24,382 nt of DNA from Candidatus Parcubacteria bacterium (GTDB lineage Bacteria; Patescibacteriota; Minisyncoccia; UBA9983): the NCBI GenBank assembly GCA_003599625.1, contig QZIU01000026.1, positions 1-24,382 of the forward strand, given 5' to 3'. The translations under genes and the position numbers were made by a program. Positions 2,061 through 20,422 of this stretch are shown here, in pieces. Position 1 is the first letter of the stretch; every line of letters starts with the position of its first letter. Under the pieces are notes generated by a model, which saw nothing but the letters and a program-made list of their open reading frames with translations, was not told the DNA's origin and ran no database searches.

Positions 2061-3476
2061 ATGATAGATAACAGACTGCCGTTTTGGATGAGACTGGGAA
2101 TTACAGTTTTGGGAGGAATCGCGATAGTTGTGGGATTGCTTTTCCTTGGTGGATGGTTGCTAGGGGGGAAAAAAGAGCGGCTCGTGGAATACAAAAACGA
2201 GTCCGGGAGAGTTGTTTACAAAATCGTAAACAACTCTGAAGCGTTTGAGCAAAACCAGAAAAGCGCCGAGGGTGTAGAAGGCGCAGAAGATGTAGAAGAT
2301 GTAGAAGAAATAAAAATTCCAAGATGGGGCAAATTGCTTGCTTGGTTAATTTTATTCTTTGGCACTGTGGGTTGCATTCATGCAATGGCTTGGGTCCACA
2401 AGGCAACGGGCGGAAAGTTTCATCTTTTTCTTTTTTCTCTTGAGGACGGAAAGGCCGCTGCTATTTGGGCAGTAGACCGGATTATTTCCATTAAAATCAC
2501 CTTGTATGGATATAGGATGAGAAAAGATGGCGAGGTCGTTTATTATGATCCTAACTGGATTATCAAACCTTTTTATTGGCTGAGGCATTATCTTTTTGGC
2601 AGTATCCATTTCTTGGGAATCCCCCTGATTCATCGAACCAGCCAAGAGGAATACAAATGGAAACACTTCGATCCTCTTACTAATGAAATAAAAACCGAAA
2701 CGGGCAAGAGAGGATATATTCCCCTCAGGGAATACGCCCCTCTTTTTGAATTCAAGGATCTAGACATTGGAGAAGGCGGCCAAATAAACGTGCAGGCCGC
2801 CATTCTAATCAAGGTGGTCAATCCGCGAAAAGCCCTGACCAATGCGAGAGATTGGTTTGCGGTGTTGAATGACCTTATGCAGAGCGGCGCGAAAGAATTC
2901 TTCAGCCCGAGGACGATCGAAGAAGTCTTCACGAGTAAAAGCAAAACCGGAGAAAAAATTGAAAAAATGCTCTCCGTCATAATGTACGACTACATGTCCC
3001 AAACCGACGCGATGCCTTCGGCAAAAGACATAATGCTCAGTATGGGGGAAATTTCGCAGGAAGAAAGGAGCGGGAAAATAACTCTCTTGTTATTTTTGGA
3101 GAAGCATTACGGGATCCGACTGATATCGACGAATGTAAAGTCTGTCGATGCGGCAAATAAGTCAACGGAAGAACTTTTGAATTCTCTCTCCAAACCTGCC
3201 AAAACTCAGCAAGAGGCCAATGCCTTATTGATCATGGCAGATGCCGAGGCTGAAGCCTTCAACAAAAAACGCAAAGCAATGGAAGCACCCGGTGGAAGAT
3301 TGTTGAGAACACTGGAGGCAATTGAAAACTCCAGATTGATCACGCTGGGTGGCAAAGGAGAGGATATAAACTTTTTAGTCGGTCAAGGATTCGAAGGCGC
3401 GGGAGGCAAAGAACAAAAAGAAAGAAAGAGTAAAGAAAAAAAGAAAAATGAAACAAGAGAGGAGGAGGAAGAATGA
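2061..3476 (+). CDS. SPFH/band-7 (stomatin/prohibitin/flotillin-like) membrane protein with two N-terminal TM segments and a Lys/Glu-rich tail
   Basis: The C-terminal half (INVQAAILIKVVNPRKALTNARDWFAVLNDL...HYGIRLISTNVKSVDAANKS...QQEANALLIMADAEAEAF) follows the SPFH-domain pattern. TM helices lie at about residues 10-35 and 92-112. Confidence 0.6.
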   Translation: MIDNRLPFWMRLGITVLGGIAIVVGLLFLGGWLLGGKKERLVEYKNESGRVVYKIVNNSEAFEQNQKSAEGVEGAEDVEDVEEIKIPRWGKLLAWLILFFGTVGCIHAMAWVHKATGGKFHLFLFSLEDGKAAAIWAVDRIISIKITLYGYRMRKDGEVVYYDPNWIIKPFYWLRHYLFGSIHFLGIPLIHRTSQEEYKWKHFDPLTNEIKTETGKRGYIPLREYAPLFEFKDLDIGEGGQINVQAAILIKVVNPRKALTNARDWFAVLNDLMQSGAKEFFSPRTIEEVFTSKSKTGEKIEKMLSVIMYDYMSQTDAMPSAKDIMLSMGEISQEERSGKITLLLFLEKHYGIRLISTNVKSVDAANKSTEELLNSLSKPAKTQQEANALLIMADAEAEAFNKKRKAMEAPGGRLLRTLEAIENSRLITLGGKGEDINFLVGQGFEGAGGKEQKERKSKEKKKNETREEEEE

Positions 3477-4291
3477 TGACCAAGTTATTAGGGTTCTGGA
3501 ATTGGATTATTTGGCTGTGGGCCGCAGGTTGGATCTTTAAGGCGGCAATTATCATTGTCGGCGTTTTGATTTTAGGGCTTTTAATTTTTGCCATGCTTAA
3601 AACACCAAGGCCGGGAAGAATCACCTTCGGAGCCAAATTAGTCACAAAGAAGAGAATAATCTTGGCTCTTATCCTGGGCTTTATCGGCCTCATCGTCTTG
3701 AACAATCTTCCGCAGATCAGATTGGCCAGGAAGGTTAAGAAAGTGGAAAGAAATTTGACTGAAAAAGCCTTGAAGCCGCTCGAAAAAAGAGCGGATGAAT
3801 TGGCAGAAAAAGTGGAAACCGGAGAAGGATTAACCCTTAATGAAGCTCGCGAGCTTCAGGACCTGAAAAAAGAGATCACGGCAACCAAGAAGCTGGTTAA
3901 AGAAGGACCGCCGTCGCCGCCGAAACCGGCTAAACTGAAACCGCCAAAGCCGGTTAAATGGATCTTCCAGATCAGGGCAGATCCGGAAGTGGTGATGCAA
4001 GCTGGACTGAGAGGGGTTGATCAGGTTCCTTTTCGAGAGTTTGAAGCGGTCTCTGTAAGTATCAAGGAGAAAGAGATTCGCTTCAGCTACAAGAGGAATT
4101 CTAAGAAGAGAAACGTTCTACTAACCCGAGAGTCTTCAGATCAATTCTATTTTGGAATGGTTGATCTGGGAGAAGGAATCAAAATGCAACTCTGGCTAAA
4201 AGAATCCCCTGAAGGATTCGCAGGAATGGCAGAAAATTGGGACGGAAAACATTGGTATCCCAAAGTTTCCGCTCTCCTGCTAAAATCCTAA
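3473..4291 (+). CDS. Hypothetical membrane protein, co-transcribed partner of the SPFH protein. It has two TM segments, a coiled-coil, a Pro-rich linker and a C-terminal globular domain.
   Basis: Its start overlaps the SPFH stop (ATGA). TM helices lie at residues 10-40 and 60-78. An EKALKPLEKRADELAEKVE coiled segment and a PPSPPKPAKLKPPKPVK linker follow. I recognise no family. Confidence 0.55.
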   Translation: MMTKLLGFWNWIIWLWAAGWIFKAAIIIVGVLILGLLIFAMLKTPRPGRITFGAKLVTKKRIILALILGFIGLIVLNNLPQIRLARKVKKVERNLTEKALKPLEKRADELAEKVETGEGLTLNEARELQDLKKEITATKKLVKEGPPSPPKPAKLKPPKPVKWIFQIRADPEVVMQAGLRGVDQVPFREFEAVSVSIKEKEIRFSYKRNSKKRNVLLTRESSDQFYFGMVDLGEGIKMQLWLKESPEGFAGMAENWDGKHWYPKVSALLLKS

Positions 4292-11425: not shown

Positions 11426-12061
11426 TTAATTGCTTCTTAATACCACTATCTCTCCTTTCTTTTCCGCCAAATCCTTCCTCTTGATAGTAAGTTTGTCCGA
11501 CGGAACAACTTCCCCGCTGCCGAATTCTTTGATAAACTGCCTCAACTGCGCTTCCTCGTAATGCATCGGAATAACCACTTTCGCCTCAAGGTGGGCGGCG
11601 ACACTCGCCGCTTTCTGCGGATCCATGAGATCGCCCCCGCCTATCGGCGCGAATAAAATATCCACTTCGCCTATGTCTTCTTTGATCTTAGGATCGAATT
11701 CTGTGCTCATCGCCCCCAAATGACAAATGGAAATGTCTTCCACAGTCAAGCTATAGATAGTATTATTGAGACCGTTGCTTCCCGTCCCTTTTATATAAAT
11801 CCCGCCAACCTCGTATTCGCCCTTACCATCGGCGAGAAAAGGTTTGCCTCCATCGGATTTGCCGGGAATATTTTCACCCCCATTGTAATCCTTATTATTG
11901 GAACTGACCAAAACAATATCCGCCGCGAATCGCGGGGACTTGAAATTGGATTCTTTTGACGGCGGATTAAAGGCGATGACTGTCTCGCCAGATTGAACTT
12001 TGAAACAAGATGCTCCGTAATAAGTGATCACCATATAGAATAGATGTTTATATAATACCAA
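11426..12061 (-). CDS. MBL-fold (UPF0173-like) protein with a degenerate metal-binding motif; probably a non-catalytic homolog
   Basis: MVITYYGASCFKVQSGETVIAFNP and ...VVIPMHYEE match the MBL-fold hydrolase family. DIVLVSSNNKDYNG replaces the HxHxDH motif, and HLGAM replaces HAGD. The likely start is the second Met, at 12034. Confidence 0.6.
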   Translation of the reverse strand: MVLYKHLFYMVITYYGASCFKVQSGETVIAFNPPSKESNFKSPRFAADIVLVSSNNKDYNGGENIPGKSDGGKPFLADGKGEYEVGGIYIKGTGSNGLNNTIYSLTVEDISICHLGAMSTEFDPKIKEDIGEVDILFAPIGGGDLMDPQKAASVAAHLEAKVVIPMHYEEAQLRQFIKEFGSGEVVPSDKLTIKRKDLAEKKGEIVVLRSN

Positions 12062-13319: not shown

Positions 13320-13913
13320 TTAGCTGCTGTTATACTCACCCATCGCTTTTCCTAAACCTTCCTTTATGATCACATCGATGGCTTCCGCCGCCTTTTTGGC
13401 GGATTTTTTAATGACAGCGAGTTCGGCGGGCTTGAATTTGCCGACTATATAGTCCAAGAATTTATCGCCGGAAGGTTTCTTGACGCGACCTTTCGCGTCC
13501 GTTACGGAGATGCCGATTCTGACACGGATGAAATTAACGGTCTTAACCGCCTTGATCACCGATTCCACTCCTTTATGCCCTGCTGAATTTTTAGCGAAAG
13601 AAATTTTTATTTTCCCCAATGGCAGATCAATGTCATCGTGGACAACGATCATCTTTTCCAATTTTTTCGGAGATGATCTGGCCAATGTCTTCAAAGCCAA
13701 ACCGGACTTGTTCATAAAAGTTTCCGGCAATATCACCTGGACTTTTTCTTTGCCAATCTCCCCTTTTGAGGCCAATCCGCTGAATTTCTTATCCAATTCC
13801 GGATCGTCCATTTTTTCCTTTTTCAGAAACTCCAAAACGGCCATTCTTCCCGCGTTATGCCGGGTAAGCTCGTACTCCTCTCCCGGATTTCCCAGACCGA
13901 TGATGTAATACAT
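13320..13913 (-). CDS. pth: Peptidyl-tRNA hydrolase
   Basis: MYYIIGLGNPGEEYELTRHNAGRMAV...KMIVVHDDIDLPLGKIKI...GHKGVESV, the canonical Pth motifs. Confidence 0.9.
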   Translation of the reverse strand: MYYIIGLGNPGEEYELTRHNAGRMAVLEFLKKEKMDDPELDKKFSGLASKGEIGKEKVQVILPETFMNKSGLALKTLARSSPKKLEKMIVVHDDIDLPLGKIKISFAKNSAGHKGVESVIKAVKTVNFIRVRIGISVTDAKGRVKKPSGDKFLDYIVGKFKPAELAVIKKSAKKAAEAIDVIIKEGLGKAMGEYNSS

Positions 13914-13994: not shown

Positions 13995-14140
13995 GAAGCA
14001 TGCAATAATAACTTTCGAGATGCTTCGGTGTTCCCTTAGAGTATCTAAGATATAGTTGTTTAACTATAAAGCCGAAGACTGGAGTCGCCATCTTGAGAGA
14101 CGCTGCTTCAATCTAAAAAGCCCCCAATAGGGGGCTTTTT
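13995..14140 (+). ncRNA. Candidate small RNA of about 145 nt, bracketed by a promoter and an intrinsic terminator. It is antisense to the pth upstream region. Class unknown.
   Basis: No ORF. Several internal hairpins: gaagcat/atgcttc at 13995-14026, cttaga/tctaag at 14034-14048, tatagtt/aactata at 14051-14068. It ends at the hairpin gcccccaatagggggc plus TTTTT (14120-14140). Confidence 0.3.
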
Positions 14141-14141
14141 A
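14116..14141. terminator. Bidirectional intrinsic terminator (aaaaagcccccaatagggggcttttt)
   Basis: 6-bp G/C stem flanked by an A-run and a T-run. Confidence 0.8.
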
Positions 14142-14146
14142 GATTT

Positions 14147-14594: not shown

Positions 14595-15881
14595 TTGAAT
14601 AAAAATTTGCCGGATGATAAAATTGAACCGATGAAAAATCTAAAAAAATTCGATCCGGAAATTTATAAAGCGATAAAGGGCGAGCTTGCCCGCCAAAAAG
14701 ACGGCATAGAACTCATCGCTTCGGAAAATTATGTGTCTGAAGCCGTACTGGAAGCGCTCGGGACCGTCTTTACCAACAAATATTCCGAGGGATACCCCGG
14801 CAGACGATATTACGCCGGGCAGGAATTCACCGACAAAGTTGAAAACCTTGCCATCGAACGGGCAAAAAAACTATTCGGAGCGGAACATGTCAATGTCCAG
14901 CCTCTTTCCGGCGCGCCAGCCAACAATATCGTTTACAGCGCCATTCTAAAGCCCGACGACAAGATCCTGGGGATGAACCTTTCCCACGGCGGCCATCTCA
15001 CCCACGGACACCCGTCCACTCTTTCGGCTAAAATTTACAATTTCGTCAGCTACAAAACCGAGCCGAACGGCGAGATAGATTATGGCAAATTGGAAGAAGT
15101 CGCGACCGCGGAAAAACCGAAACTGGTCTTGGCCGGTTTTTCCGCCTACACCAAACAACTTGATTACAAAAAATTCCAGGAAATTGCCAACAAGATCGGC
15201 GCTATCTCCATGATAGACATTTCTCATATCGCGGGACTTATCGCGGGCAAAGCCATTCCCAATCCTGTTCTCTATTTCGATATAGTTACGACGACAACCC
15301 ACAAAACTTTGCGCGGCCCGAGAGGAGGAATGATAATGTGCCGCAAGGAATTTGCCTCCGCGATAGACAAAGCTTTGTTTCCCGGATTCCAAGGCGGACC
15401 GCATATGAACAATATCGCTGCCAAAGCAGTTGCCTTCAAAGAAGCGCTTCAACCGACTTTCAGAACTTACGCCAAGCAAGTCATCAAGAACGCCAAAGCT
15501 CTGGAAAAAGAATTGCAAAAACTGGGCTTTAAAACTATTTTCAGCGGCACGGAAAACCATATCGTCCTTGCGGACGTATTTTCCAGCAAAGGCATCAGCG
15601 GCAAAGAAGCGGAAAAGGTTTTGGACGAGGCTGGCATAACCTTGAATAAGAATGTCATCCCCGATGATACCCGAGGCCCAATGGATCCAAGCGGCATAAG
15701 GCTCGGCCCGCCCGCGGTTACAACCAGAGGCATGAAGGAAAAAGAAATGAAGCTTGTCGCCAACTGGATATGCGAAGCAATCGAGAACCGCAATGATAAA
15801 AAAGTTTTGTCGCGAATCAGAGAAGAAACGCTGGCCCTCTGCAAAAAATTCCCCTTGTATAAAAACTTGAAGTTGAAATAG
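14595..15881 (+). CDS. glyA: Serine hydroxymethyltransferase
   Basis: LIASENYVSEAVLEALGTVFTNKYSEGYPGRRYYAG...THKTLRGPRGGMI. The start is ambiguous: TTG at 14595 or ATG at 14631. Confidence 0.95.
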   Translation: MNKNLPDDKIEPMKNLKKFDPEIYKAIKGELARQKDGIELIASENYVSEAVLEALGTVFTNKYSEGYPGRRYYAGQEFTDKVENLAIERAKKLFGAEHVNVQPLSGAPANNIVYSAILKPDDKILGMNLSHGGHLTHGHPSTLSAKIYNFVSYKTEPNGEIDYGKLEEVATAEKPKLVLAGFSAYTKQLDYKKFQEIANKIGAISMIDISHIAGLIAGKAIPNPVLYFDIVTTTTHKTLRGPRGGMIMCRKEFASAIDKALFPGFQGGPHMNNIAAKAVAFKEALQPTFRTYAKQVIKNAKALEKELQKLGFKTIFSGTENHIVLADVFSSKGISGKEAEKVLDEAGITLNKNVIPDDTRGPMDPSGIRLGPPAVTTRGMKEKEMKLVANWICEAIENRNDKKVLSRIREETLALCKKFPLYKNLKLK

Positions 15882-15969: not shown

Positions 15970-16047
15970 CATTGACAATAGGCCAAAAAAGAAACAAACT
16001 GATACCAGTTTATTTTATTTTTGGTCTTTAAAAACAGAAGGGAAATA

Positions 16048-16743
16048 ATGAAAAAGGAAATGATGAAAAAGCGAAAATTCGTCGCAATAACGGGCACGGA
16101 TGGAAGTGGCAAGGCCACGCAGCTAAAGCTTCTTTCTTCTCATTTGAAAAGAAAAGGATATAGAGTTTCCACCATTGATTTTCCGGGCTATCAAAGGAAT
16201 TTTTTCGGCAAAGTTGTCGGAAAATATCTCCGGGGCGAATTCGGAAAAGCTTCGGAGGTCAGTCCTTATCTGGCTTCCATGCTTTACGCGGCGGACAGAT
16301 TCGAGGACGCGAAACGGATAAGAAGATGGCTGAGCGAAGGCAGGATCGTTATCGCCGACCGATACGCCAGCGATAATCAGATTCATCAGGGCGGCAAAAT
16401 AATGAATGCCGCCAAAAGAAAAGAATTTCTGGATTGGCTGGAAGAAATGGAATTCAAGATTTTCAAAATCCCCAGGCCGGACGCGATAGTATATCTAGAC
16501 GTGCCGCTGGAAATTACTCAAAAATTGCTGGCTGAAAAATCGTCGCAAGACAAAAAAGATTATCTTGCCGGCAAAAAGGATATTCACGAGAGCGACTCGG
16601 AACATTTGATAAACGCCAAAGCAAACGCCATAGAACTGGTCAAGAAAACTAACAAATGGATTCGCATAAATTGCGCGCCTGACGGAGAAATATTGCTTAA
16701 AGAAGAAATAACAAATCTTATTTTAAAAGCTTTAAAATTTTAG
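16048..16743 (+). CDS. tmk: Thymidylate (dTMP) kinase
   Basis: P-loop FVAITGTDGSGKATQ, DRY motif IVIADRYASD. The ATG at 16048 is preceded by gaaggga. Confidence 0.85.
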   Translation: MKKEMMKKRKFVAITGTDGSGKATQLKLLSSHLKRKGYRVSTIDFPGYQRNFFGKVVGKYLRGEFGKASEVSPYLASMLYAADRFEDAKRIRRWLSEGRIVIADRYASDNQIHQGGKIMNAAKRKEFLDWLEEMEFKIFKIPRPDAIVYLDVPLEITQKLLAEKSSQDKKDYLAGKKDIHESDSEHLINAKANAIELVKKTNKWIRINCAPDGEILLKEEITNLILKALKF

Positions 16744-16756
16744 AAAGGAGAAAGCA

Positions 16757-18115
16757 ATGGAAGTAAAACTTATAAGTTGCGCGAATACGGATCCGCTTGA
16801 TCTGGCAAGTTTCGCCGCCGGAACTTGTTATCAAGACAAACTGCCGGAACTTGGCAAAAGGCTGAATGTCAAGGACAAACTCTTCAGTGTCGGGCATCAT
16901 ACGACTTTGCAGCATCATTATGCCACCTTTGCCATAGAGGAAATTGCCGTTGGCGACATTACTTTCGGAATGCATCTGGCCAGTCCGTTTTATAACAGCG
17001 ACCAAAGAAGCGGAAGATATTGCGCCAAAATGTTTCTGGAACCGGATTACGGCAAAATAGAAAATTATATAAAAAAATTTTGGCCTGAAGTCTCAAGCAA
17101 CACCCTAGCTTCCGCCGTTGATTATGTCAAAAAAGGAGTGGAAACTTACCATTCTCACATAGCGGCAGCCACGGAACTTGCGGCAAAATTTGTGGCCGAA
17201 GAAAGGCCTCGCGCCAGCGCTATTATAAAAGGAAACATCCCTAAATATGCCCAAGAACAGATGAGGATGTTTATCTCGGTCATATTCCCCACCGCTTTTG
17301 TTTTTACCATAAACGATACCGCTCTTGCGGCCATGTACGAAGCGGCGTGGACTCCGCCGATGAGATACGCCAGCGAGGAAATGGCGCGGCTTTTTGTAGA
17401 AAAGTATCCCGAGACGGCCTTTATGTTCAACGAGTCACGGAGACGGAAAACGGATTGGGCCATGTCTGTTAAAGACATTCCTTATCACGGGATTAAGTAC
17501 AGGCCGGATTTGCAGCTGTTGGAAATAACTCGCGCCGAGTTCAATCTTCCCAATAAGGAGATTATGCATCCGATTGACATGCTTCACTTCACGCCTGAGA
17601 CAATGGAGAACAATATTCCACATATCTCGAGCCTGATAGAAATTTCCACGGCAACCATGGGACAAGATCAAAGGCACCGGACCATAAAAAGAGGCTTGCC
17701 AAGATTTACCGGGAACTTCTACATTCCTCCCGTTTTAAGGGGGTTAAAACTGGAAAAAAAAGCCATCGAACTGATGAATCAATGGGCTGAGGTCAGTAAA
17801 AAAATCCCCGACACCCTGGCGATGATTCTTGCTCCATACGGCGCCATGGTTTCCTACGCTAAATCGGGATCGCTTAACGCAATCGCCCACGAGCAGGCAA
17901 AAAGATTATGCTGGTCCGCGCAGGAAGAGATTTACCACCTTGGGAGACTGCAAAGGTTGGCCGTTGAGGAAAAACTCGGGAAGGCGACTTCTCTTCTTAA
18001 AATCTTCGAACCTCCTTGCTACGAGAAAGGCATATGCTCCGAGGGGGAAAGATATTGCGGAAGAGACAGGGAGCTCAGGAAAAACGGCGATTATTTTCCC
18101 GGAAGAAAAATTTGA
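16757..18115 (+). CDS. ThyX-like flavin-dependent thymidylate synthase homolog with an internal tandem duplication (two ThyX-like half-domains, 452 aa)
   Basis: The N-terminal half reads HHTTLQHHYATFAIEE...GMHLASPFYNSDQRSGRY. It keeps the SGRY loop, but RHR is replaced by MHL. The C-terminal half reads HISSLIEISTATMGQDQRHRTIKRGLPRFTGNFYIPPV...RLCWSAQEEI. It keeps RHR and the AQWEI-like motif but not the Ser/RY. Confidence 0.6.
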   Translation: MEVKLISCANTDPLDLASFAAGTCYQDKLPELGKRLNVKDKLFSVGHHTTLQHHYATFAIEEIAVGDITFGMHLASPFYNSDQRSGRYCAKMFLEPDYGKIENYIKKFWPEVSSNTLASAVDYVKKGVETYHSHIAAATELAAKFVAEERPRASAIIKGNIPKYAQEQMRMFISVIFPTAFVFTINDTALAAMYEAAWTPPMRYASEEMARLFVEKYPETAFMFNESRRRKTDWAMSVKDIPYHGIKYRPDLQLLEITRAEFNLPNKEIMHPIDMLHFTPETMENNIPHISSLIEISTATMGQDQRHRTIKRGLPRFTGNFYIPPVLRGLKLEKKAIELMNQWAEVSKKIPDTLAMILAPYGAMVSYAKSGSLNAIAHEQAKRLCWSAQEEIYHLGRLQRLAVEEKLGKATSLLKIFEPPCYEKGICSEGERYCGRDRELRKNGDYFPGRKI

Positions 18116-19409: not shown

Positions 19410-19985
19410 ATGGCATGGCAAAATGAAATACCGAAGAACATACTCGAAAAGATGATTCAGGAGAAGATTGACCCGTTGTACGAATTAAGAAAGAGACCAA
19501 CTTGCGACGATATATTTGTCGAAGTGGCTTTGGCGGTTTCAAAAAGAGCAGTTTGTCTTTTTCATGAGGTTGGCGCCGTTATTTTTAAGGGCAGTCACAT
19601 ACTGTCAACGGGATATAACGGTCCTGCTTCGGGCGATCTTCATTGCACCAAAGTCGGTTGCGCCAAAATTATTGGCGGAGAAATTAAATCTGGGACCGGT
19701 TTATGCAGAGGAACGCACGCTGAATTAAACGCCATAGGAAACGCGGCTAAATTCGGCATTAACATAGAAGGCGCGAGTATTTTTGTAACATGGGCGCCAT
19801 GTTACACATGCGCGAAGCAACTTGTGAATGCCAGTCTTCGGCATGTTCTGTATCTTATCAACTATGAAGATGCCAGGGCAAAAAAGTGCCTTGAAACAGC
19901 CAAGATAAGTTTAACCAGATACGAACCCAGGCTTGAAAGCCTGTCACAGAAGGTCGAAGAATTAAGAAACACCTACGAAAAATAA
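19410..19985 (+). CDS. dCMP (deoxycytidylate) deaminase
   Basis: Zinc motifs HAELNAI and PCYTCAKQL. GAVIFKG...STGYNG core. Confidence 0.85.
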   Translation: MAWQNEIPKNILEKMIQEKIDPLYELRKRPTCDDIFVEVALAVSKRAVCLFHEVGAVIFKGSHILSTGYNGPASGDLHCTKVGCAKIIGGEIKSGTGLCRGTHAELNAIGNAAKFGINIEGASIFVTWAPCYTCAKQLVNASLRHVLYLINYEDARAKKCLETAKISLTRYEPRLESLSQKVEELRNTYEK

Positions 19986-19996
19986 ACCAATCTTTC

Positions 19997-20030
19997 AAAA
20001 AGGGCATGCTAATCGCAATGCCCTTTTTCA
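19997..20030 (+). terminator. Intrinsic terminator after the dCMP deaminase gene
   Basis: gggcat (20002-20007) / atgccc (20018-20023) stem plus ttttt. Confidence 0.65.
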
Positions 20031-20092
20031 TTCTTAAATTGCCAAGGGTCTTTTTATGGCTTAAAATCATTTATGATAAAGTAATTATACTC

Positions 20093-20422
20093 ATGACATT
20101 TGAACAGTATCAAAAACAATCCCGCGAGACGGCGATCTATCCGGATAAAGGTAGAAATTTCATTTATCCAACCTTGGGACTTGCCGGGGAAGCCGGCGAG
20201 GTGGCGGAAAAGATCAAAAAGGTTTTAAGAGATAAGGGCGGCATCGTTGATGAAACTGTCAGACAAGAACTTGCCAAAGAGCTGGGGGACGTCTTATGGT
20301 ATCTCTCTCAGATCGCCACGGAACTGAATTTGTCTTTGGAAGAGATAGCGGCAAAGAATATAGAGAAGCTGCTGTCCCGAAAAGGTCGGGGTGTTTTGGG
20401 TGGAGATGGAGATAACAGGTGA
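20093..20422 (+). CDS. MazG-like all-alpha nucleotide pyrophosphohydrolase (candidate dUTP/dCTP pyrophosphatase)
   Basis: LGLAGEAGEVAEKIKK...ELGDVLWYLSQIATELNLSLEEIAAKNIEKL, the EExxE/D and DxxWY MazG motifs. The start is chosen at ATG 20093, 109 aa. Confidence 0.7.
   Translation: MTFEQYQKQSRETAIYPDKGRNFIYPTLGLAGEAGEVAEKIKKVLRDKGGIVDETVRQELAKELGDVLWYLSQIATELNLSLEEIAAKNIEKLLSRKGRGVLGGDGDNR

Follow-up and report, generated by a model that had tools for sequence, protein, structure and literature searches.

In this work we analysed a stretch of 24,382 nucleotides from a Candidatus Parcubacteria bacterium (contig QZIU01000026.1, forward strand, at its full length; hereafter the window), and specifically one open reading frame (ORF) of 452 residues, which an earlier note had taken for an internally duplicated form of the thymidylate synthase ThyX. 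The gene starts with ATG 13 nt past the stop codon of tmk, with a ribosome-binding site (AAAGGAG) upstream, and the database record for the identical protein is annotated as a hypothetical protein. The motifs quoted in the earlier note were all found where it had placed them. The gene and its parts are listed below, with the residues of Thermotoga maritima ThyX (TM0449) to which they align.

16757..18115, + strand: the tandem (domain-duplicated) thyX gene, 452 aa and a stop codon
16757..17431, + strand: N-terminal ThyX domain, residues 1-225, the putative "substrate-loop donor" (Thy1 43.4 bits alone)
16895..16915, + strand: HHTTLQH (residues 47-53), aligned with T. maritima H53-E-T55-P-F-E-H59
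16970..16978, + strand: M72-H73-L74, the degenerate Arg-His-Arg (RHR) position of the N-half, from the HMMER alignment
17003..17020, + strand: Q83-R-S85-G-R87-Y88, the Ser/Arg/Tyr loop that binds deoxyuridine monophosphate (dUMP), aligned with T. maritima S88, R90 and Y91 (role from PMC6514825)
17264..17266, + strand: R170, aligned with T. maritima R147
17432..17488, + strand: inter-domain linker, residues 226-244, poorly conserved and far shorter than in forms of about 528 aa
17489..17986, + strand: C-terminal ThyX domain, residues 245-410, the putative "flavin/RHR donor"
17663..17680, + strand: Q303-D-Q305-R306-H307-R308, aligned with T. maritima Q75...R78-H79-R80
17900..17932, + strand: K382-R383-L-C385-W-S-A-Q-E-E-I392, aligned with T. 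maritima L173-R174-A-D-S-H178-A-Q-W-E-I and holding the catalytic Arg and the first invariant Cys
17987..18112, + strand: C-terminal extension past the ThyX domain, with C421-x5-C427-x-E-G-x-R-Y-C434-G

The whole protein matches the Pfam family Thy1 (PF02511) with 61.5 bits against a cut-off of 24.8, in two stretches. Taken alone, the N-half scores 43.4 bits (profile positions 7-190) and the C-half 22.0 bits (E 1.5e-4, positions 60-177), the latter just under the Pfam cut-off. Because the initial alignments could all derive from the N-half, the C-half was tested separately. With an alignment of diverse tandem ThyX proteins (A3; 33 aligned sequences, 21-41% identity to P0258), the C-half aligned to TM0449 with E 1.3e-5 and its motifs in register (QxQRHR on RQWFRHR, FYIPP on FYIPS, the LxP strand, and RLCxxAQEEI on LRADSHAQWEI), and the two halves aligned to each other with E 6.9e-5. 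The N-half matched TM0449 in hhalign with a probability of 98% (E 6.5e-14), and a HMMER alignment to the same protein placed MHL on RHR, SGRY on S88-Y91 and R170 on R147. Furthermore, Thy1 was matched by six of the seven C-halves from distant tandem homologues that we tested (E 8e-13 to 2e-24; the seventh reached just 15.8 bits), three of these distant C-halves spanning nearly the whole profile (positions 2-191), and in alignment A3 the invariant residues of the window C-half are also found in C-halves from distant homologues. From the Thy1 matches of the distant C-halves together with the A3 profile alignments, we therefore conclude that the internal ThyX duplication is real and that two Thy1 domains lie in one chain, as the earlier note had proposed.

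The fold prediction points the same way. AlphaFold2, given 120 homologues, returned a model of high confidence (mean predicted local distance difference test, pLDDT, 93.2; predicted template modelling score 0.91) in which one order of strands and helices occurs twice. The ThyX fold is supported for both halves. In the PDB, a single-sequence phmmer search gave marginal ThyX matches (E 0.3-0.5) and a spurious match to a designed repeat, the family profile did little better (E 0.01), which made a comparison of folds necessary, and we found neither a matching solved structure nor any ThyX-family chain above about 260 residues. Two observations could be taken to mean that the ORF is an incipient pseudogene, a duplicate that is decaying or chimeric, or an artefact of assembly or annotation: the score of the C-half alone, and the absence of significant similarity between the halves when hhalign was given a shallow Parcubacteria alignment (E 0.37, misaligned). 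Against this stand the high AlphaFold2 confidence and the occurrence of an intact ORF with this architecture in hundreds of independent assemblies, in addition to the conservation data given below, and the probability of such an explanation is close to nil. By its predicted fold and its mapped catalytic residues the window protein is ThyX-like.

The two halves have lost different parts of the ThyX active site. The N-half keeps H47, T49 and H53 (H53, T55 and H59 in T. maritima), S85-G86-R87-Y88 (S88-G-R90-Y91) and R170 (R147), and lacks RHR, where M72-H73-L74 stands instead, as well as the R174/H178-AQWEI element. The C-half keeps Q303 and Q305 (Q75 region), R306-H307-R308 (R78-H79-R80), H378, R383 (R174) and AQEEI; it lacks the Ser/Arg/Tyr loop, with a shorter TIKRGLPRFTGN loop in its place, and also an equivalent of R147, there being no Arg in TLAMILAP, which aligns with REVARIVLP. 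Each member of the T. maritima ligand set (H53, T55, Q75, R78, H79, R80, S88, R90, Y91, R147 and R174) occurs once per polypeptide. Canonical ThyX (PF02511/TIGR02170; TM0449, Rv2754c, and the enzymes of H. pylori and of PBCV-1, A674R) has a subunit of 190-250 aa that carries RHRx7-8S in one domain, whereas in the 452-aa two-domain chain of the window no single domain has this motif, which is split over the two.

In canonical ThyX, four identical subunits form four active sites, and three of the subunits contribute to each site. In the published assignment for Mycobacterium tuberculosis, RHR and Arg199 (T. maritima R174), which contact the flavin and the uracil, come from subunit A, Ser71 and Arg190 (T55 and R165) from subunit B, and Arg87, Ser105, Arg107 and Tyr108 from subunit C, the last three being T. 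maritima S88, R90 and Y91; T55/Ser71 binds the phosphate of flavin adenine dinucleotide (FAD) from a neighbouring, third subunit (PMC6514825). An inhibitor structure of the PBCV-1 enzyme places Q75 and R182 on monomer A, and S88 and Q89 on monomer B (PMC3498832), and R174 activates dUMP (PMC8316439). As mapped by alignment, the split of residues between the halves matches this known division of labour between subunits: the C-half would be a dedicated A-type domain, and the N-half a dedicated C-type domain that is probably B-type as well through T49. Since RHR/R174 and the Ser/Arg/Tyr loop lie on separate subunits in the canonical enzyme, a fusion could give each polypeptide about one complete site. 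The suggestion of the earlier note that the fused chain could form fewer, asymmetric active sites agrees with the published assignments (PMC6514825; PMC3498832).

We quantified the conservation of these residues in 414 full-length tandem proteins, arranged in four sequence sets and coming from Parcubacteria, Microgenomates, Acidobacteriota, Chloroflexota and other phyla. S85, R87, R170 and R383 are 100% conserved; Q303, Q305, R306, R308 and H378 97-100%; H307 82-100% (82% in the Microgenomates-type set); and H47, T49 and H53 88-100%. Q389 and E391 reach 97-100% outside the representative set, in which they stand, together with T49 and H53, at 88-93%. Position 88 is Tyr in 62-100%, Phe replacing it in up to 36%. 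At the degenerate RHR of the N-half, the first residue is L, F or M (Arg accounts for at most about 1% in one set and is absent from the others), the middle one, H73, is 97-100% conserved, and the third is mostly S, A or L, with T or M in a minority. From the 414 sequences we defined a tandem signature consisting of (i) [LFM]-H-[SAL] replacing RHR, plus S-x-R-[YF], in the N-half, (ii) Q-x-Q-R-H-R and R-x-C-x-x-A-Q-E-E in the C-half, and (iii) C...C-x-E-G-x-x-x-C-G in the tail. The window protein carries every element, and the elements are 82-100% conserved in the four sets. The complementary loss of motifs noticed earlier in this one protein, of RHR in the N-half and of the Ser/Arg loop in the C-half, is thus kept at about 100% across the 414.

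Among the 120 Parcubacteria-type homologues, mean pairwise identity is 60% in the N-half, 64% in the C-half, 65% in the tail and 31% in the linker (taken over residues 226-268), so that the N-half is slightly less conserved than the C-half and the tail. Because the residues are conserved in 414 proteins and both halves and the tail are under equal constraint, the complementary pattern is a conserved feature of the family and not a quirk or the result of decay. Of the outcomes that would have refuted the earlier note, neither a single Thy1 domain nor a decaying duplicate was found, the complementary residues being conserved at about 100% in many phyla.

Homologous fused forms exist in large numbers. 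Parcubacteria-type proteins form at least 702 clusters, of which the 120 listed measure 441-491 aa, mostly 450-470. An exhaustive profile search gave 835 representatives (50% identity level) that group into several tiers, forms of 440-528 aa among them. The same layout is found in a Microgenomates form of about 540 aa and in a form of about 528 aa with at least 4551 clusters. Among the GTDB species representatives there are at least 597 confirmed relatives, the best 80 of which include Acidobacteriota, Elusimicrobia, Myxococcota, Omnitrophota, Planctomycetota, Chloroflexota and Nitrospirae, besides a metagenome-assembled genome (MAG) of Woesearchaeota. Tandem ThyX proteins of about 525 aa occur in archaeal MAGs of the DPANN type (locus L059 from Woesearchaeota, and P0391, from an "archaeon" and 66% identical to P0258), which points to gene exchange by horizontal transfer between bacteria and episymbionts with small genomes. 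Six representatives of about 235-245 aa (P0186, P0205, P0206, P0211, P0217 and P0218) match just profile positions 211-455, and the first residue of the representatives of about 240 aa falls precisely on a conserved internal Met, at profile position 93 or 211; these short forms are probably truncated gene calls at contig ends and not split two-gene forms.

Valas & Bourne had pointed out in 2009 (PMC3224940) that Chloroflexi "and a few other species" have a duplicated, uncharacterised ThyX. We traced the long duplicated form, of about 500-550 aa, in Acidobacteriota, Elusimicrobia, Myxococcota, Planctomycetota, Omnitrophota, Nitrospirae, Microgenomates and DPANN MAGs. It shares with the window protein the architecture, the complementary residues and the C385/C421/C427/C434 signature. 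The Parcubacteria type, however, is 60-90 residues shorter, its linker and helical inserts being deleted (the other tandem subfamilies have 60-80 extra residues in the linker region of alignment A3), and its C-half is much more diverged, with 22 bits on Thy1 (in the window protein) against 49-87 in the long form. The Parcubacteria type also differs in the spacing of the tail cysteines, C-x5-C instead of C-x10-11-C, and in lineage-specific invariant residues: R84, G86, R312, N374 and K382 are invariant in the Parcubacteria type, and are V/Q, Q, G/A, L/F and M/Q, respectively, in the other tandem subfamilies. The position of A192 is a 100% conserved Arg in the other subfamilies and Ala or Ser in the Parcubacteria type. 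Judged from these aligned positions, the periphery of the active site is remodelled in this lineage. Among the domain-duplicated ThyX proteins, that of the window is unusual in its compactness and its divergence.

The C-terminal extension, with three of the four invariant cysteines, is an addition relative to canonical ThyX and has no counterpart in the T. maritima enzyme. C385 lies two residues past the catalytic R383, and C421, C427 and C434 lie within the extension. C385 is conserved in 99-100% of the tandem proteins and the other three in 100%, E429 and G435 in 95-100%, giving the signature R-x-C-x2-A-Q-E-E ... P-C-x5-11-C-x-E-G-x-R-[YFW]-C-G. The Cys-rich tail that the earlier note had singled out as an extra feature is therefore both added and invariant in its cysteines. 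In the full AlphaFold2 model the tail has a pLDDT of 82-90, and the C-terminal 75 residues gave no sequence match in the PDB. In the accessible literature we found no paper linking ThyX to iron-sulfur or zinc and no description of a four-cysteine motif beside the catalytic arginine. Judged from the sequence pattern, the four invariant cysteines would most likely coordinate a metal and so hold the tail in place against the loop of R383. It is also conceivable, if rather improbable, that they bind a redox-active iron-sulfur cluster near the flavin; the tandem proteins would then be a distinct class of metallo-flavoprotein thymidylate synthases with half the active sites and another electron input, for example ferredoxin, in contrast to the NADPH oxidase half-reaction of canonical ThyX. 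In a weaker version of this reading, the cysteines would hold a structural zinc and the tail would plug or regulate the degenerate pocket.

On the observed and computed basis of the two-domain architecture, the fold, the residue mapping, the family conservation and the synteny described below, we propose a model in which the two main subunit roles of ThyX are divided between the fused halves. We infer from the sequence that the protein dimerises, binds FAD and is catalytic, and how many sites it has. The C-half would donate RHR and R383, and the N-half S85, R87, Y88 and R170, together with H47 and T49; the counterpart of R170, R147, would in the canonical enzyme probably come from the same subunit as the Ser88/Arg90/Tyr91 loop. 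A dimer of 452-aa chains would then mimic the tetramer with just two complete sites for FAD, dUMP and folate, where canonical ThyX has four, the two reciprocal sites being degenerate, without RHR, R174 and the substrate loop.

Alternatively, all four sites of the pseudo-tetramer could be functional, the lost residues being replaced by other, lineage-specific ones, for example R84 and R312 in the Parcubacteria type, or H73. That H73 is conserved, and R312 invariant within the Parcubacteria type, suggests a second pocket that has not simply been abandoned. However, with R312 being G/A and R84 being V/Q in the other subfamilies there is no family-wide substitute, the N-half has no Arg at the R78/R80 position (beyond the about 1% in one set) or at that of R174, and the loop of the C-half is shorter and without Ser-x-Arg-Tyr. 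Four working sites are for these reasons very unlikely, and a pseudo-tetramer with about two sites is the arrangement that we predict.

The gene is part of a same-strand cluster in the order glyA, tmk, thyX, dcd, dCMP deaminase, mazG, and no strong terminator-like sites were found inside it. Besides thyX, it consists of the following genes:

14595..15881, + strand: glyA, serine hydroxymethyltransferase (SHMT), source of methylenetetrahydrofolate (CH2-H4folate); PF00464, 518 bits; its true start is probably an internal ATG
16021..16743, + strand: tmk, dTMP kinase; PF02223, 68.7 bits
18177..19292, + strand: dcd, two-domain dCTP deaminase of 371 aa; NF005734, 297.8 bits (cut-off 283); PF06559 DCD_N and PF22569 DCD_C
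19410..19985, + strand: dCMP deaminase (ComEB-like); PF00383, 59.8 bits; TIGR02571, 93 bits, under cut-off
20006..20422, + strand: MazG-like nucleotide pyrophosphohydrolase; PF03819, 44.3 bits

By its predicted products, the cluster forms a complete branch that leads from dCTP and dCMP by way of dUMP and dTMP to dTDP, and it includes the enzyme for the one-carbon donor. In the proposed pathway the CH2-H4folate would come from the adjacent GlyA and the dUMP both from Dcd, together with MazG, and from the dCMP deaminase; the dTMP product would be passed to the adjacent Tmk. The MazG-like protein may take the dUTP-to-dUMP step. The window thus has, in its dCMP and dCTP deaminases, two routes to dUMP, and with dcd the thyX operon encodes a second oligomeric enzyme in an internally duplicated form. 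The upstream edge of the operon is marked by a perfect hairpin with a 16-bp stem and T-runs on both sides (14110-14145, bidirectional terminator-like), between pth (13320-13913, - strand) and glyA.

Two relatives from the Candidate Phyla Radiation (CPR) keep this arrangement in part: locus L081 has SHMT, dCMP deaminase, Tmk and tandem ThyX, followed by a dUTPase (11443-11868), and L083 has SHMT, Tmk and tandem ThyX. The dUTPase of L081 occupies the position of the MazG-like gene of the window. At the 80 tandem loci from other phyla (L001-L080), tblastn with the window GlyA, Tmk, Dcd, dCMP deaminase and MazG gave a single Tmk match, the dTTP-synthesis operon being absent at 79 of 80. The operon arrangement is thus a CPR feature. 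Elsewhere in the window, the stop and start codons overlap between the genes of a 471-aa protein with a weak SPFH/Band 7 match (2061-3476, + strand) and of a 272-aa protein without a Pfam match (3473-4291, + strand). A phage or mobile origin was considered and rejected, as the genes around the cluster (enolase, gyrA, ribosomal protein S1, pth, hisS, ftsA) are those of ordinary housekeeping chromosome.

The operon had been put forward by the earlier note as the argument for a thymidylate synthase; the Pfam matches bear the cluster out, and it recurs in both CPR relatives. The literature on the tandem form adds to it. In Chloroflexi except Dehalococcoides, the duplicated ThyX is reported to be the only thymidylate synthase (Valas & Bourne 2009, PMC3224940), and bacteria generally carry either thyA or thyX but not both (PMC10733785). 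In a review table, Acidobacteria have ThyX in 6/6 and ThyA in 0/6, and the tandem form is common in Acidobacteria among the GTDB species representatives. Because the operon context is kept in relatives and the literature on the tandem form agrees with it, the role in thymidylate synthesis is supported, and on these sequence-based grounds we consider it by far the likeliest function.

A changed function was the other outcome envisaged for the duplicated chain: the protein might methylate or otherwise modify another nucleotide, for example UMP, like PolB, or dCMP, or it might be a non-catalytic regulator. PolB, a ThyX-like UMP/dUMP C5-methylase of polyoxin biosynthesis (PDB 4p5a), indeed resembles the window protein in fold; it is, however, a single-domain homo-oligomer encoded in a secondary-metabolite cluster, whereas the window gene lies in a housekeeping dTTP operon, a context that argues against membership of the PolB type. 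The dUMP-recognition residues R78, R80, S88, R90, Y91, R147 and R174, which contact uracil and phosphate, all have invariant counterparts, except for the Y91 equivalent Y88, which is otherwise Phe. Moreover, the gene is flanked by tmk on one side and by dcd/dCMP deaminase on the other, with glyA further upstream, within a complete dTTP branch that is also found in relatives, and Chloroflexi are reported to have no thymidylate synthase but the duplicated form (PMC3224940). We therefore regard a changed function as unlikely.

Several points weigh against the assignment as a thymidylate synthase. First, the window protein fails the thyX equivalog model of NCBIfam, TIGR02170, with 40.7 bits against a cut-off of 87.9, which marks it as a very divergent member; four of six other tandem relatives tested pass the same model (103-120 bits), and P0267 and P0188 fail it. 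In addition, and unlike in canonical ThyX, equivalents of M. tuberculosis Arg87 and Arg190 (T. maritima R165) are absent from both halves. Besides, no experimental data were found for any tandem ThyX in the accessible literature. Notwithstanding, we put at roughly three in four the probability that the gene encodes the flavin-dependent thymidylate synthase of this organism in a domain-duplicated form.

As seen in the sequence databases, the tandem family is large, its members already bear the annotation FAD-dependent thymidylate synthase, and the architecture is shared by many other organisms. Because the family is annotated and the duplication was mentioned in print in 2009, we call the window protein a family member and not a new system. 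The partition of the catalytic residues, its universality across the family and the four-cysteine signature were not found in the accessible literature. The ThyX of Chlamydia trachomatis (CT632) is about 529 aa long, a typical length for the long tandem form, and is a candidate member of the class; its biochemical characterisation was reportedly given by Griffin et al. in 2005. No Chlamydiota were found among the best 80 of the at least 597 GTDB relatives, nor among the matches listed for the protein search centred on P0258. If CT632 does belong to the tandem class, thymidylate synthase activity would already have been demonstrated for a tandem ThyX.

ThyX is an antibacterial target whose mechanism relies on active sites shared by three subunits. 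In the tandem form, evolution would have carried out a natural experiment, by placing the two main subunit roles on different domains. A fixed asymmetric enzyme with a predicted two sites per pseudo-tetramer would allow the flavin-side and substrate-loop roles to be mutated one without the other, as no homotetramer permits. The tandem form is, moreover, very common, with thousands of clusters in many phyla, and most Chloroflexi reportedly have no other thymidylate synthase. For the biology of the CPR, the predicted gene content of the locus means that this Parcubacterium keeps a compact and complete branch leading from dCTP/dCMP to dTDP.

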